A stretch of 25,373 nt of DNA from Escherichia coli (GTDB taxonomy: Bacteria > Pseudomonadota > Gammaproteobacteria > Enterobacterales > Enterobacteriaceae), in NCBI RefSeq assembly GCF_003334765.1, contig NZ_QOWT01000045.1; one strand, written 5' to 3'. A program made the position numbers and the translations under genes. The notes under the pieces were generated by a model. The model was given only the letters and a program-made list of their open reading frames with translations, was not told the DNA's origin and made no database searches. This document shows positions 14,782-22,325 of this stretch, piece by piece (position 1 is the first letter of the stretch; every line of letters starts with the position of its first letter).

Positions 14782-17019
14782 GTGGACTGGCTTCTTGATG
14801 TTTTTGCTACCTGGCTCTACGGCTTAAAAGTAATCGCGATAACGTTAGCGGTCATCATGTTCATCAGCGGGCTGGACGATTTTTTTATTGATGTCGTCTA
14901 CTGGGTACGCCGCATTAAACGCAAGTTGAGTGTTTATCGCCGCTACCCGCGAATGAGTTACCGCGAACTGTATAAACCAGATGAAAAACCGTTAGCGATT
15001 ATGGTTCCGGCGTGGAATGAAACGGGCGTCATCGGCAATATGGCCGAGCTGGCGGCGACCACGCTCGACTACGAAAACTATCATATCTTTGTTGGCACCT
15101 ACCCCAACGCCCCCGATACTCAGCGTGATGTTGACGAAGTGTGCGCTCGCTTCCCGAATGTGCATAAGGTAGTCTGCGCGCGTCCTGGCCCCACCAGCAA
15201 AGCCGACTGTCTGAACAACGTGCTGGACGCCATCACCCAATTTGAGCGTAGCGCCAATTTCGCTTTTGCTGGTTTTATTCTGCATGACGCCGAAGATGTG
15301 ATTTCACCGATGGAATTGCGTCTGTTCAACTATCTGGTCGAGCGTAAAGATCTGATTCAGATCCCGGTGTATCCGTTCGAACGCGAATGGACGCACTTCA
15401 CCAGCATGACTTACATTGATGAGTTTTCAGAGCTGCATGGCAAAGATGTTCCGGTGCGTGAAGCCCTCGCCGGACAAGTGCCCAGCGCAGGCGTCGGCAC
15501 CTGTTTCAGCCGCCGCGCCGTGACCGCACTGTTAGCTGACGGTGACGGTATTGCTTTCGACGTGCAGAGTCTTACTGAAGATTACGACATTGGCTTCCGC
15601 CTGAAAGAAAAAGGTATGACGGAAATTTTTGTCCGTTTTCCGGTGGTGGACGAAGCCAAAGAACGCGAGCAGCGTAAATTTTTACAGCACGCGCGGACAT
15701 CAAACATGATCTGCGTGCGCGAATATTTCCCCGATACCTTTTCGACTGCGGTTCGACAAAAATCCCGCTGGATCATCGGCATTGTTTTCCAAGGCTTTAA
15801 AACCCATAAATGGACCTCCAGCCTGACGCTGAACTACTTTCTCTGGCGCGACCGCAAAGGGGCAATCAGTAACTTTGTCAGCTTCCTCGCGATGCTGGTG
15901 ATGATCCAGCTTTTGCTGTTGCTGGCGTATGAAAGTTTGTGGCCCGATGCCTGGCATTTCCTTTCTATTTTCAGCGGCAGCGCATGGTTAATGACCCTGC
16001 TGTGGCTAAACTTTGGTTTGATGGTTAACCGCATCGTGCAGCGGGTGATTTTCGTTACTGGCTACTACGGCCTGACGCAGGGGCTGCTTTCCGTCCTGCG
16101 TCTTTTCTGGGGCAACCTGATTAACTTCATGGCCAACTGGCGCGCGCTAAAACAGGTACTTCAACACGGCGATCCACGTCGCGTGGCGTGGGATAAAACA
16201 ACGCATGACTTCCCCAGCGTGACTGGCGATACCCGCTCGTTGCGCCCGTTAGGTCAAATTCTGCTGGAAAATCAGGTCATCACTGAAGAACAACTCGATA
16301 CAGCACTGCGTAATCGCGTCGAAGGTCTACGCCTGGGCGGTTCAATGCTGATGCAGGGGCTGATTAGCGCCGAGCAGCTGGCACAGGCGCTGGCAGAGCA
16401 AAACGGCGTGGCGTGGGAATCCATCGATGCCTGGCAGATCCCTTCCTCGCTGATTGCCGAAATGCCGGCCTCCGTGGCGCTGCATTATGCGGTACTGCCG
16501 CTGCGTCTGGAAAATGACGAGTTAATTGTCGGCAGTGAAGATGGTATTGACCCGGTTTCGCTGGCGGCCCTGACGCGTAAAGTCGGACGCAAAGTGCGTT
16601 ACGTCATTGTTCTGCGGGGACAAATTGTCACAGGGTTACGTCACTGGTATGCACGCCGACGCGGTCACGATCCGCGGGCAATGTTGTACAATGCGGTTCA
16701 GCATCAGTGGCTCACGGAACAGCAGGCCGGTGAAATCTGGCGGCAATATGTGCCGCATCAGTTCCTGTTCGCCGAAATACTGACCACGCTCGGTCATATT
16801 AATCGTTCAGCAATTAACGTGTTGTTATTGCGCCATGAACGCAGTTCTCTGCCGCTCGGCAAGTTTTTGGTCACCGAAGGCGTTATCAGCCAGGAAACGT
16901 TGGATCGCGTCCTGACAATTCAACGCGAATTACAAGTTTCGATGCAATCACTATTACTCAAAGCAGGTTTAAACACAGAACAGGTTGCGCAACTGGAGTC
17001 CGAAAATGAAGGAGAATAA
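14782..17019 (+). CDS. nfrB: Phage N4 adsorption protein B: inner-membrane family-2 glycosyltransferase with C-terminal MshEN-type c-di-GMP-binding domain, 745 aa
   Basis: GTG start 14782: MDWLLDVFATWLYGLKVIAITLAVIMF.... Two RLGxxLLxxGLIxxxxLxxxLxxQ-like motifs at 16330..16401 and 16852..16923. Confidence 0.9.
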   Translation: MDWLLDVFATWLYGLKVIAITLAVIMFISGLDDFFIDVVYWVRRIKRKLSVYRRYPRMSYRELYKPDEKPLAIMVPAWNETGVIGNMAELAATTLDYENYHIFVGTYPNAPDTQRDVDEVCARFPNVHKVVCARPGPTSKADCLNNVLDAITQFERSANFAFAGFILHDAEDVISPMELRLFNYLVERKDLIQIPVYPFEREWTHFTSMTYIDEFSELHGKDVPVREALAGQVPSAGVGTCFSRRAVTALLADGDGIAFDVQSLTEDYDIGFRLKEKGMTEIFVRFPVVDEAKEREQRKFLQHARTSNMICVREYFPDTFSTAVRQKSRWIIGIVFQGFKTHKWTSSLTLNYFLWRDRKGAISNFVSFLAMLVMIQLLLLLAYESLWPDAWHFLSIFSGSAWLMTLLWLNFGLMVNRIVQRVIFVTGYYGLTQGLLSVLRLFWGNLINFMANWRALKQVLQHGDPRRVAWDKTTHDFPSVTGDTRSLRPLGQILLENQVITEEQLDTALRNRVEGLRLGGSMLMQGLISAEQLAQALAEQNGVAWESIDAWQIPSSLIAEMPASVALHYAVLPLRLENDELIVGSEDGIDPVSLAALTRKVGRKVRYVIVLRGQIVTGLRHWYARRRGHDPRAMLYNAVQHQWLTEQQAGEIWRQYVPHQFLFAEILTTLGHINRSAINVLLLRHERSSLPLGKFLVTEGVISQETLDRVLTIQRELQVSMQSLLLKAGLNTEQVAQLESENEGE

Positions 17020-19978
17020 CCTTAATCGCGTCATCGGATGGTCTGGTTTACTGCTGACGTCTTTATTGAGTACCAGCGCACTCGCAGACAATATCGGCAC
17101 CAGCGCAGAAGAGCTGGGGCTGAGCGATTATCGCCATTTTGTTATTTATCCCCGTCTCGATAAAGCGCTGAAGGCACAGAAAAATAACGACGAAGCAACC
17201 GCCATCCGCGAATTTGAATATATACACCAGCAGGTGCCGGATAATATTCCGCTGACTTTATACCTTGCGGAAGCCTATCGCCATTTTGGTCATGATGACC
17301 GGGCGCGGCTGTTGCTTGAGGATCAACTGAAACGTCACCCAGGAGATGCCCGACTTGAGCGCAGTCTGGCGGCTATTCCGGTTGAAGTGAAAAGCGTTAC
17401 GACAGTTGAAGAACTGCTTGCCCAGCAAAAAGCGTGCGATGCTGCGCCGACCCTGCGTTGTCGCAGTGAAGTCGGGCAGAATGCCCTGCGGCTGGCACAG
17501 TTACCTGTCGCCAGAGCGCAACTGAACGATGCGACGTTTGCTGCATCGCCGGAAGGAAAAACGCTGCGAACCGATCTGCTGCAACGGGCAATCTACCTGA
17601 AACAATGGTCCCAGGCAGATACGCTATACAATGAAGCACGCCAGCAGAACACATTAAGCGCGGCAGAACGCCGTCAGTGGTTTGACGTGCTTCTTGCCGG
17701 GCAGCTGGACGATCGGATCCTGGCACTGCAATCACAGGGGATCTTCACCGATCCTCAGTCATATATTACTTACGCGACCGCGCTGGCTTATCGTGGCGAA
17801 AAAGCACGCCTCCAGCATTATCTCATTGAAAATAAGCCACTATTTACCACGGACGCACAAGAGAAAAGTTGGCTCTATCTGTTATCTAAATACAGCGCTA
17901 ACCCCGTTCAGGCGTTGGCGAATTATACGGTACAGTTTGCCGACAACCGCCAGTATGTTGTTGGCGCGACGCTACCGGTGCTGTTAAAAGAAGGTCAGTA
18001 CGACGCAGCGCAAAAACTGCTCGCCACCCTCCCCGCCAATGAAATGCTTGAGGAGCGTTATGCTGTCAGCGTGGCGACCCGTAACAAGGCTGAAGCTCTG
18101 CGTCTGGCACGATTGCTGTATCAGCAAGAACCGGCAAATCTTACCCGCCTGGATCAACTAACCTGGCAACTGATGCAGAACGAGCAGTCACGCGAAGCTG
18201 CCGATTTATTGCTGCAACGCTATCCTTTCCAGGGCGATGCGCGTGTCAGCCAGACTTTAATGGCGCGACTGGCGTCTCTGCTGGAAAGTCATCCTTACCT
18301 GGCAACGCCGGCGAAGGTGGCGATTTTATCGAAACCCTTACCGCTGGCGGAGCAACGTCAGTGGCAAAGTCAGTTGCCGGGTATTGCAGATAATTGCCCG
18401 GCAATAGTTCGCTTGCTGGGCGATATGTCGCCTTCCTACGATGCCGCCGCCTGGAACCGTCTGGCAAAGTGTTATCGGGACACGCTACCCGGTGTGGCGT
18501 TGTATGCATGGCTTCAGGCCGAACAACGACAACCGAGCGCCTGGCAACATCGTGCGGTAGCCTATCAGGCGTATCAGGTTGAGGACTACGCCACCGCACT
18601 GGCGGCCTGGCAGAAAATCAGTCTTCACGACATGAGCAATGAGGATCTGCTTGCTGCTGCCAATACCGCCCAGGCGGCAGGAAATGGTGCGGCTCGCGAT
18701 CGCTGGCTACAACAGGCAGAAAAACGTGGACTGGGAAGCAATGCCCTCTACTGGTGGCTGCATGCGCAACGTTACATTCCTGGTCAGCCGGAACTCGCAC
18801 TGAACGATCTCACGCGCTCAATCAATATTGCGCCTTCTGCCAACGCTTACGTTGCGCGGGCGACAATTTATCGCCAACGTCATAATGTCCCGGCCGCGGT
18901 GAGTGATTTGCGCGCCGCGCTGGAACTGGAACCGAATAATAGCAACACCCAGGCAGCGCTTGGTTACGCCTTGTGGGATAGCGGTGATATCGCACAGTCG
19001 CGGGAAATGCTCGAACCGGCGCATAAAGGGCTTCCGGACGATCCGGCACTGATCCGACAACTGGCCTACGTGAACCAGCGTCTGGATGACATGCCTGCGA
19101 CGCAGCACTACGCCCGGCTGGTGATTGATGACATTGATAATCAGGCGCTGATAACCCCACTGACCCCAGAACAAAATCAACAACGCTTCAATTTCCGCCG
19201 TTTGCATGAGGAGGTCGGTCGCCGCTGGACGTTCAGTTTCGATTCTTCCATCGGCTTGCGTTCCGGCGCAATGAGTACCGCTAACAATAATGTCGGCGGC
19301 GCAGCGCCAGGGAAAAGCTATCGTAGCTACGGACAACTGGAAGCCGAGTACCGCATCGGACGCAATATGCTGCTGGAAGGCGACCTGCTCTCAGTTTATA
19401 GCCGCGTCTTTGCCGATACCGGAGAAAACGGGGTGATGATGCCGGTGAAAAATCCGATGTCCGGCACCGGTCTGCGCTGGAAGCCGCTGCGCGATCAGAT
19501 CTTTTTCATCGCCGTCGAACAGCAGTTGCCGCTGAACGGCCAAAATGGCGCATCCGATACCATGCTGCGCGCCAGCGCCTCATTCTTTAATGGCGGCAAA
19601 TACAGCGACGAATGGCACCCGAACGGTTCAGGCTGGTTTGCCCAAAACCTGTACCTCGATGCGGCGCAATATATCCGCCAGGATATTCAGGCGTGGACGG
19701 CAGATTATCGCGTCAGCTGGCATCAGAAGGTAGCTAACGGACAGACTATTGAGCCTTACGCTCACGTTCAGGACAACGGCTATCGTGATAAAGGCACTCA
19801 GGGCGCGCAGCTTGGCGGAGTCGGGGTCCGCTGGAATATCTGGACCGGCGAGACGCACTACGACGCCTGGCCGCACAAAGTCAGTCTCGGCGTCGAGTAT
19901 CAACATACCTTTAAGGCGATTAATCAACGTAACGGAGAGCGCAACAACGCGTTTCTCACCATTGGAGTGCACTGGTAA
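17006..19978 (+). CDS. nfrA: Phage N4 adsorption protein A: outer-membrane protein with TPR-rich periplasmic part and C-terminal beta-barrel, 990 aa
   Basis: ATG at 17006 overlaps the nfrB 3' end by 14 nt. MKENNLNRVIGWSGLLLTSLLSTSALA..., recognised as NfrA. Confidence 0.9.
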   Translation: MKENNLNRVIGWSGLLLTSLLSTSALADNIGTSAEELGLSDYRHFVIYPRLDKALKAQKNNDEATAIREFEYIHQQVPDNIPLTLYLAEAYRHFGHDDRARLLLEDQLKRHPGDARLERSLAAIPVEVKSVTTVEELLAQQKACDAAPTLRCRSEVGQNALRLAQLPVARAQLNDATFAASPEGKTLRTDLLQRAIYLKQWSQADTLYNEARQQNTLSAAERRQWFDVLLAGQLDDRILALQSQGIFTDPQSYITYATALAYRGEKARLQHYLIENKPLFTTDAQEKSWLYLLSKYSANPVQALANYTVQFADNRQYVVGATLPVLLKEGQYDAAQKLLATLPANEMLEERYAVSVATRNKAEALRLARLLYQQEPANLTRLDQLTWQLMQNEQSREAADLLLQRYPFQGDARVSQTLMARLASLLESHPYLATPAKVAILSKPLPLAEQRQWQSQLPGIADNCPAIVRLLGDMSPSYDAAAWNRLAKCYRDTLPGVALYAWLQAEQRQPSAWQHRAVAYQAYQVEDYATALAAWQKISLHDMSNEDLLAAANTAQAAGNGAARDRWLQQAEKRGLGSNALYWWLHAQRYIPGQPELALNDLTRSINIAPSANAYVARATIYRQRHNVPAAVSDLRAALELEPNNSNTQAALGYALWDSGDIAQSREMLEPAHKGLPDDPALIRQLAYVNQRLDDMPATQHYARLVIDDIDNQALITPLTPEQNQQRFNFRRLHEEVGRRWTFSFDSSIGLRSGAMSTANNNVGGAAPGKSYRSYGQLEAEYRIGRNMLLEGDLLSVYSRVFADTGENGVMMPVKNPMSGTGLRWKPLRDQIFFIAVEQQLPLNGQNGASDTMLRASASFFNGGKYSDEWHPNGSGWFAQNLYLDAAQYIRQDIQAWTADYRVSWHQKVANGQTIEPYAHVQDNGYRDKGTQGAQLGGVGVRWNIWTGETHYDAWPHKVSLGVEYQHTFKAINQRNGERNNAFLTIGVHW

Positions 19979-21051: not shown

Positions 21052-21813
21052 ATGCAATTGAGCAGCAGTGAACCTTGCGTGGTGATCCTGACCGAAAAAG
21101 AGGTAGAGGTAAGCGTCAATAACCATGCTACGTTTACCCTTCCGAAAAACTACCTGGCCGCCTTCGCGTGCAACAATAACGTCATTGAACTCTCAACGTT
21201 AAATCACGTATTAATCACCCACATCAACCGTAACATCATCAACGATTATCTGTTGTTTTTAAATAAGAACTTAACCTGTGTAAAGCCCTGGTCGCGGCTG
21301 GCAACCCCGGTTATCGCTTGTCATAGCCGTACACCGGAAGTGTTCCGGCTAGCCGCCAACCACAGCAAGCAGCAACCCAGCAGACCCTGCGAAGCGGAGT
21401 TGACGCGCGCATTGCTTTTTACCGTATTGTCTAACTTTCTTGAGCAATCGCGGTTTATTGCCCTACTGATGTATATCTTACGCAGCAGCGTCCGCGACAG
21501 CGTCTGCCGCATTATTCAAAGCGATATTCAGCATTACTGGAATCTGCGAATTGTCGCCAGTTCGCTATGTTTAAGCCCCAGCCTGCTCAAAAAGAAATTA
21601 AAAAACGAAAATACCAGCTATAGCCAGATTGTCACAGAGTGTCGTATGCGTTACGCCGTACAGATGTTATTGATGGATAACAAAAATATCACTCAGGTGG
21701 CGCAATTATGTGGCTATAGCAGCACGTCGTACTTTATCTCTGTTTTTAAGGCGTTTTACGGCCTGACACCGTTGAATTATCTCGCCAAACAGCGACAAAA
21801 AGTGATGTGGTGA
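21052..21813 (+). CDS. envY: AraC/XylS-family transcriptional regulator EnvY (porin thermoregulation), 253 aa
   Basis: ORF MQLSSSEPCVVILTEKEVEVSVNNHATF... with C-terminal AraC-type helix-turn-helix (GYSSTSYFISVFKAFYGLTPLNYL). Confidence 0.85.
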   Translation: MQLSSSEPCVVILTEKEVEVSVNNHATFTLPKNYLAAFACNNNVIELSTLNHVLITHINRNIINDYLLFLNKNLTCVKPWSRLATPVIACHSRTPEVFRLAANHSKQQPSRPCEAELTRALLFTVLSNFLEQSRFIALLMYILRSSVRDSVCRIIQSDIQHYWNLRIVASSLCLSPSLLKKKLKNENTSYSQIVTECRMRYAVQMLLMDNKNITQVAQLCGYSSTSYFISVFKAFYGLTPLNYLAKQRQKVMW

Positions 21814-21858
21814 AGGGCAAAGCGGAAACGGATAAGACGGGCATAAATGAGGAAGAAA

Positions 21859-21903
21859 TGGCGCGCCCTGCAGGATTCGAACCTGCGGCCCACGACTTAG
21901 AAG
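21859..21903 (-). pseudogene. pauD: Truncated tRNA-Arg(UCU) 3' fragment (pauD-like), the prophage attachment scar of an argU-integrated lambdoid element
   Basis: Minus-strand sense reads CTTCTAAGTCGTGGGCCGCAGGTTCGAATCCTGCAGGGCGCGCCA: anticodon loop with TCT, complete T-arm, acceptor 3' half and CCA, but no D-arm or 5' acceptor half. Identity to argU as I recall it ends at 21903/21904. Confidence 0.8.
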
Positions 21904-22325
21904 TTCCTAGAACGACATTTTAAGTCAACAACTTACCGCGCCATCTCTGCGCTCACACGTCCCACTACCTCAAAACATGTAAAGCCTTGCAAGCCATTGT
22001 GAGGCCTTATGTGTCTCAGTTTTGTCCCTCTTTTTTGTACCAAAAAACATAGCAATTGAGGATAAACCTCATGCTATTTTCGCTTATATGCCTCTAAAGG
22101 CATGGCGCTTAAATAGATAAAAACACCACAAAAGCATAAAAAACCACACAGTAAAACCGCAACATAAAACAATAACAGATAATTAAACCAAAAACAGATA
22201 GCGCATTGTGATAATCATTCAATACTAAACAAAATATAAACAGTGGAGCAATATGTAATTGACTCATTAAGTTAGATATAAAAAATACATATTCAATCAT
22301 TAAAACGATTGAATGGAGAACTTTT

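Follow-up and report, generated by a model that had tools for sequence, protein, structure and literature searches.

The attR of prophage DLP12 of Escherichia coli K-12, like the location of ompT inside that prophage, has been known since about 1989-1993, and the assignment of this attR to argU is reportedly due to Lindsey, Mullin and Walker in 1989. In the K-12 RefSeq record the 'cryptic prophage DLP12' spans 564755..586056: it opens with the first base of the core within argU and closes one base short of the attR core. The 45-nucleotide sequence that is the subject of this analysis is present there twice, once within argU (564755-564799) and once as the attR core (586057-586101). The K-12 element is a defective remnant of 21.3 kb, with insertions of IS3 and IS5, a truncated xisD without its first 42 codons, appY beside ompT, emrE, and nmpC::IS5. 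Its attR has been described as 47 bp similar to the 3' end of argU (PMC6379469); among E. coli prophages DLP12, which sits in argU, is the most prevalent (PMC10057817); and ompT is located within it (PMC5723341, PMC2588501).

Phage epsilon34, which uses argU, and the P22/L-type phages, which use thrW, have the same int-xis-attP layout as the element considered here, and their P and P' arms are conserved with its own (77% and 72% identity over 285 nt). In each of them the block of identity is the 3' part of a tRNA gene, but the lysogenic-conversion cargo beyond attP is gtrABC, as against ompT here. The core of P22 and L matches thrW and not argU, while that of epsilon34 follows the argU of Salmonella (43 bp, with 3 differences in 45 nt), and the phage backbone (podovirus) and the cargo are also different. 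In phage lambda the core is 15 bp long and lies in the intergenic gal-bio site rather than in a tRNA gene, and no gene needs regenerating. The attR of lambda (POB') nonetheless resembles the present one: both are hybrids in which a common core joins a phage arm to a bacterial one, and attR is the excision substrate for Int, Xis, IHF and Fis (PMC6379469). The argU-matching 43-bp attP of epsilon34 has been documented, and the Int of DLP12 was named there as the closest relative of epsilon34 Int (PMC2629481). According to the Islander principle, a regenerated tDNA and a displaced fragment of it mark the two ends of an island, and tDNA att sites whose identity block runs from the anticodon loop make up an 'anticodon-centred' class (PMC4383910).

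The window, meaning the whole stretch of 25,373 nucleotides of E. coli DNA that was analysed, holds a fragment of this sort at 21859-21903, on the minus strand. It is almost certainly the attR of a lambdoid prophage of the DLP12 / phage 2G7b type, inserted in the single-copy argU gene for tRNA-Arg(UCU). As such the feature is already known, since the attR of DLP12-type prophages is annotated in the K-12 RefSeq record and in the literature. The attR sequence of K-12 is identical to that of the window, and K-12 DLP12 is further like the window in having an identical core, an attR that lies between ompT and envY, ompT just inside the boundary, and an integrase identical at 385 of 388 positions. 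The full element was examined in E. coli str. TO6 (NZ_LS992166.1), which is 100% identical to the window over 24,974 bp. Unlike K-12 DLP12, the TO6 element extends over 56 kb, possesses complete head, tail and lysis genes and an intact xis, and has a hydrolase gene in place of appY. It thus shares with DLP12 the integration in argU with a 47-bp core and lacks the K-12 gene content; it is a fuller, nearly complete relative within the DLP12 phage lineage, and not the K-12 remnant itself.

Two features of the chromosomal part of the window may be recorded here. At its start, positions 241-396 on the minus strand match the Rfam sok antitoxin RNA (84.4 bits, E 1e-17) and overlap small plus-strand ORFs at 97-427; the window opens with a chromosomal hok/sok-type toxin-antitoxin locus adjoining ybdK, presumably hokE/sokE, to judge by position. 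The nfrA gene (16985-19978) is an uninterrupted ORF of 997 codons, and it is frameshifted in the annotation of strain NCTC86, a genome that gave a 100% match to a 1.2-kb query, yet is 99.1-99.5% identical over the whole window.

The argU fragment and the attachment sites

The plus strand at 21859-21903 reads TGGCGCGCCCTGCAGGATTCGAACCTGCGGCCCACGACTTAGAAG, and its reverse complement reproduces argU from the anticodon loop, which it enters at the loop's first base, C32, down to CCA; anticodon UCU, variable region, T arm and the 3' strand of the acceptor stem are all included. The preliminary description had taken these 45 nucleotides for the 3' part of tRNA-Arg(UCU), from anticodon loop to CCA and without a 5' half, and this is borne out by a match at 45 of 45 positions to the tRNA-Arg(tct) genes called by ARAGORN in TO6 (locus L005, 8819-8863) and in the empty-site strain CFS3292. 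For TO6 the comparison is one made within a single genome, in which the intact argU has an identical 3' half. In the window the 45-mer occurs at this site alone when up to 3 mismatches are allowed, none of 100 shuffles matched it, and the number expected by chance is 0. Comparison of the att sites shows that the 5' 31 nt of argU are missing from the fragment. ARAGORN called 0 tRNA genes in the whole window, and Rfam at its gathering threshold found no tRNA there, as is expected for half a gene; since both searches were negative, the 5' half is truly missing. The fragment accordingly lacks the full cloverleaf, with acceptor stem, D arm and anticodon arm, that a functional tRNA gene has. It lies, as was also claimed, between envY (21052-21813, plus strand) and ompT (22326-23279, plus strand), of which envY is annotated in matching genomes and is the chromosomal neighbour just outside the prophage.

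The limits of the fragment were established by a three-way comparison, anchored on the 45-mer, of the window (attR), the intact argU of TO6 (attL) and the empty site of CFS3292 (attB). The repeat common to all three consists of the 45 nt and a further 2 nt past CCA, giving a core (O) of 47 bp at 21857-21903 that is also present in attP; a 47-bp match to argU alone was likewise what BLAST returned in other genomes, and both the left edge of homology to phage 2G7b and the published length (PMC6379469) agree with it. The 120 nt to the left of the core are identical at 120 of 120 positions to the envY side of the CFS3292 empty site, so that the spacer between envY and the core, at 21814-21856, is the B' arm, chromosomal DNA that natively follows the 3' end of argU; the same 120 nt are 32.5% identical to the phage arm of attL. 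Conversely, TO6 has beyond the core of its intact argU 120 nt that agree at 120 of 120 positions with the fimZ side of the empty site. The inner, phage arms are unrelated to attB, with identities of 32.5% and 17.5%. In CFS3292 the unoccupied site has the order nfrA-ybcH-envY-tRNA-Arg-fimZ, and in empty-site genomes generally envY adjoins an intact argU.

A precise junction had been proposed at 21903/21904. As the edge of tRNA identity it stands: the attR has T where the gene has G, and the next 120 nt are only 17.5% identical to argU. As the point of exchange it does not, because strand exchange took place somewhere within the 47-bp core, 21857-21903. The identity block starts at the anticodon loop, as in the 'anticodon-centred' class, and for this reason the crossover would likely fall in the 7-nt anticodon-loop segment 21897-21903.

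A predicted attP was assembled by placing the core between the int-side arm taken from attL and the ompT-side arm taken from attR, and was then searched for in a phage collection. It is contiguous in Escherichia phage Kati (285/285, 100%) and, at 99.3%, in phages Turner, 2G7b and ev243. These four phages have the same 47-bp core and the same int-side and ompT-side arms, at 99.3-100%; the difference is that in the free phages the arms are joined (POP'), whereas in the window the P arm and core are joined to the chromosome (POB'). The locus therefore displays what the Islander principle of displaced tDNA calls for: a repeat on the same strand, an adjacent tyrosine integrase, an empty target and a joined attP. 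The earlier reading of the fragment as the footprint of a tRNA-integrating phage is upheld by this comparison of attR, attL, attB and attP, by the empty site and by the contiguous attP of the phages, and none of the observations speaks against it.

Among 5426 complete E. coli genomes, an uninterrupted envY-argU-fimZ site is present in 2534 (with at least 80% of the attB query covered), and the occupied envY-core-ompT junction, as in the window, in 1582. The site also occurs in two other states, observed in E. coli N44 (L011, 2557-9524) and isolate 30348_2#316 (L012, 5757-9466). The first state is a remnant of 3.4 kb with the order ompT variant-methyltransferase-tfa'-int'-argU; 5 substitutions have accumulated in its attR core, and envY is deleted to its last ~30 nt. 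The second is a tandem array, in which a second prophage, of the ompT-hydrolase kind, lies beside such a remnant, so that two copies of ompT are present.

The integrase end and the phage arm

In TO6 the 45-mer occurs twice on the same strand, as direct repeats 55,967 bp apart, the second copy lying inside the intact tRNA-Arg(tct) gene at L005 8819-8863. Rightward from the fragment the TO6 element comprises ompT, the alpha/beta hydrolase gene, tail-fibre assembly remnants and a methyltransferase gene, then a full lambdoid set of tail, head, terminase and lysis genes, and, further on, Q, replication and immunity genes, xis and intD; these are followed by the intact tRNA-Arg(tct), fimZ and the sfm fimbrial operon. 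The attL that was to be sought beside an integrase gene is thus found 55,967 bp to the right, where intD is separated from the tRNA-Arg gene by 15 nt.

Several peculiarities of the TO6 prophage were observed. It has a tandem duplication of 9,975 bp (L004, 23026-32995 and 32995-42965), whose copies are 99.91% identical with 9 gaps as the differences, and which covers lysis, terminase, portal and head genes; it may be real or an artefact of long-read assembly. Counting the duplication, the element is 56 kb long; the genomes of the related free phages Kati, Turner, 2G7b and ev243 measure 45.6-48.2 kb. In addition, IS1 is inserted in yfdR (L005, 5586-6283). Given the IS1 insertion and the duplication, this prophage may have lost the ability to make viable phage.

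The IntD protein of TO6 is identical at 387 of 388 positions to the integrase of 2G7b, at 385 of 388 to IntD of K-12, and at 310 of 388 to the Int of epsilon34, and it matches tyrosine recombinase/integrase families (phrog_1, 2e-85; phrog_10426, 2.7e-115; Xer-type matches in NCBIfam). The xis ORF, which overlaps the start of int (L005, 7413-7781), is uninterrupted in TO6, as it is in 2G7b, Kati, epsilon34 and L; its product of 123 aa matches the excisionase family phrog_2907 (1e-45) and is 79% identical to the Xis of epsilon34. At this position PGAP annotates only a 66-nt 'partial helix-turn-helix' pseudogene.

On the phage side of the core, positions 21904-22028 constitute the P arm of attR, which is phage DNA and the presumed binding region for the arm domain of Int, for IHF and for Xis. 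Its first 120 nt are identical to the attP of phage Kati, and it is conserved with the attP of epsilon34 (argU) and of the P22/L-type phages (thrW), as far as about column 231 of a four-phage alignment. The conservation stops where the cargo genes start, and this identifies 21904 to about 22028 as the functional P arm. One block there, TAAGTCAACAAC, is invariant across 2G7b, Kati, epsilon34 and phage L. Motifs of two kinds are candidates for protein binding. The sequence AGTCAACAACTTA (21921-21933, plus strand) agrees at 8 of 9 specified positions with the IHF consensus WATCAANNNNTTR and is a candidate IHF site. The repeat GTCCC(A) occurs in 5 copies, all pointing the same way, in a span of ~360 bp that surrounds the core, as compared with a background of 0.63 per kb in the window on both strands: two copies are in the P arm (21959 and 22024), two in tandem in the P' arm (L005, 8753 and 8764) and one inside int (L005, 8624). 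Those of the P arm define two putative arm-type sites for Int, namely CGTCCCAC (21958-21965, plus strand), in which the repeat is conserved in the four-phage alignment, and TGTCCCTC (22023-22030, plus strand), at the outer limit of P-arm conservation.

The following course of events is proposed. The phage attP holds a 47-bp copy of the 3' end of argU, which reaches from the anticodon loop to 2 nt past CCA, and the tyrosine integrase IntD, which is of the P22-Int type, would have recombined it with argU. The tRNA gene would thereby have been rebuilt at attL from the bacterial 5' half and the core, followed by the phage P' arm with int and xis, while a second copy of the 3' segment would have remained at a distance of 56 kb, with the phage P arm on one side and the original downstream flank of argU, by envY, on the other. 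On this reading the fragment has no function as RNA; together with the P arm (~21904-22028) it would act as the DNA substrate for excision by Int, Xis and IHF. The position of ompT and the hydrolase gene at the edge of the prophage would follow from their adjoining attP in the phage genome. The repeat, both of its flanks, the empty site, the contiguous phage attP and the intact int and xis frames are matters of observation. The prophage may still be competent for excision at the present day.

It is very improbable that the fragment and P arm, besides serving as attR, also encode a functional tRNA-like RNA. Such an RNA could be read from a permissive Rfam run, in which a sub-threshold tRNA match was returned at 21870-21953 on the minus strand (24.8 bits, E 0.0095, where the gathering score is 29); from an inverted repeat of 8-12 nt (21854-21865 / 21937-21948) that might form an acceptor-like stem; and from the records of phage Kati, where an 84-nt 'tRNA-Pro' is annotated, and of phage L, where a 'tRNA-like fragment' is annotated at attP. 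The Rfam score, however, comes mostly from the genuine T arm of argU, and ARAGORN was negative on the window and on the phage loci. The fold energy is ordinary (z = -1.15, with 25 of 200 shuffles folding equally well), and neither epsilon34 nor phage L keeps the acceptor-like pairing. Old remnants show drift in the core, with 5 substitutions or a 1-nt deletion, and the fragment is therefore not under selection as an RNA. A tRNA-like RNA over core and P arm was accordingly rejected as unsupported by ARAGORN, by the fold z-score and by cross-phage pairing, and the 'tRNA-Pro' call in Kati is probably a false positive. Very little credence is likewise given to a wider conjecture, according to which int-attP modules of the P22 type would carry a whole tRNA-like element, made up of a 3' part identical to the target and a diverged 5' pseudo-half (here 21859-21953, minus strand), whose transcript or DNA structure might act in its own right, for instance by regulating int or by choosing the target, beyond merely supplying sites for Int, IHF and Xis to bind.

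Cargo genes and the extent of the phage DNA

On the reading of the fragment as attR, the genes next to it belong to the phage. The first of them, ompT (22326-23279, plus strand), encodes the omptin outer-membrane protease (NF008222, 705.9 bits against a cut-off of 537; phrog_19858) and adjoins attP. The second cargo gene (23466-24950, plus strand) encodes an alpha/beta hydrolase (Pfam PF00561, 5e-33, and PF08386, 6e-14; phrog_20134) of 494 aa, with an Abhydrolase_1 domain, a TAP-like C-terminal domain and an N terminus resembling a signal peptide (MRKIITHFKVVLTLLLPVTVSAQ); it could be a second secreted, peptidase-like cargo protein beside OmpT. The start of the phage structural region is marked by the remnant of a tail-fibre assembly gene (25134-25339, minus strand), annotated by PGAP on the identical TO6 record (L004, 5027-5232) and homologous to the tfa region of K-12 DLP12. 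The hydrolase cassette (23330-25209) takes the place of the appY cassette present in K-12 DLP12 and in phage Kati; homology to K-12 ends at 23329 and resumes at 25210.

The whole of this region can be aligned with a free phage. Window positions 21857-25373 are 99.77% identical to phage 2G7b (ICTV species Nesevirus nv2G7b) over 3517 bp, with 8 mismatches and no gaps, and the alignment starts exactly at the left edge of the core, 21857, with no homology further left. The gene order in 2G7b is integrase-attP-omptin-alpha/beta hydrolase-tail fibre assembly-methyltransferase-tail fibre. From this gapless collinearity, beginning at the core edge, it follows that ompT and the hydrolase gene are phage cargo; ompT is in the matching position in 2G7b and Kati, and the hydrolase gene in 2G7b. 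Phage Kati has an appY-like regulator in place of the hydrolase. A search of the literature on phages 2G7b and ev243 and on Nesevirus found nothing relevant. The preliminary description had deduced from the orientation of the fragment that everything to its right is of prophage origin, and the deduction was sound: the anticodon end faces phage DNA, and 2G7b is collinear at 99.77%. The alignment shows that the DNA rightward of the fragment is phage DNA throughout, ompT and the hydrolase gene included.

The composition of the DNA also changes across the site, as had been suggested as a check. The GC content falls from 0.52 on the left to 0.41 on the right. Measured against the chromosomal profile, the right side has a tetranucleotide distance of 0.45, and controls have 0.14-0.18. 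These values support the boundary without locating it: envY is itself GC-poor (0.46), so that composition alone would not place it.

An extremely improbable alternative is that the fragment bounds a separate, non-phage ompT island, and that the prophage proper begins further right. OmpT and the hydrolase are indeed not encoded by phage-function genes, there is cassette-like variation at this place, with the hydrolase gene here and appY in K-12 and Kati, and some lineages retain only the 3.4-kb ompT remnant. But no second att-like repeat lies between ompT and the tail genes, both proteins are in PHROG families, and in 2G7b and Kati the series int-attP-ompT-(hydrolase or appY)-tfa-tail fibre forms part of one contiguous genome; as for the 3.4-kb remnant, it keeps int' and tfa' on its far side, which fits the decay of a whole prophage. 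Lastly, a negligible probability attaches to the fragment being a decayed duplicate or pseudogene of argU, produced by local duplication or deletion without phage integration, since, even if it is a piece of a tRNA gene without its 5' half and prokaryotic genomes hold tRNA gene fragments of various origins (PMC9897764), it starts exactly at the anticodon loop, has as one flank the native downstream sequence of argU, is matched 56 kb away by argU and int, and adjoins on its right a sequence that in free phage genomes runs on into the int-side arm, so that such a duplicate, like a chance match, was ruled out by the flanks and attP in the comparison of attL, attR, attB and attP.

Recognition of the fragment as the attR of a DLP12-type prophage sets an exact boundary for annotation: what lies left of 21857 (envY, ybcH, nfrAB, cus and so on) is chromosome, and what lies right of 21903 is prophage. 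It also means that OmpT, often treated as a housekeeping protease of E. coli, is lysogenic-conversion cargo, which phages that target argU still carry.
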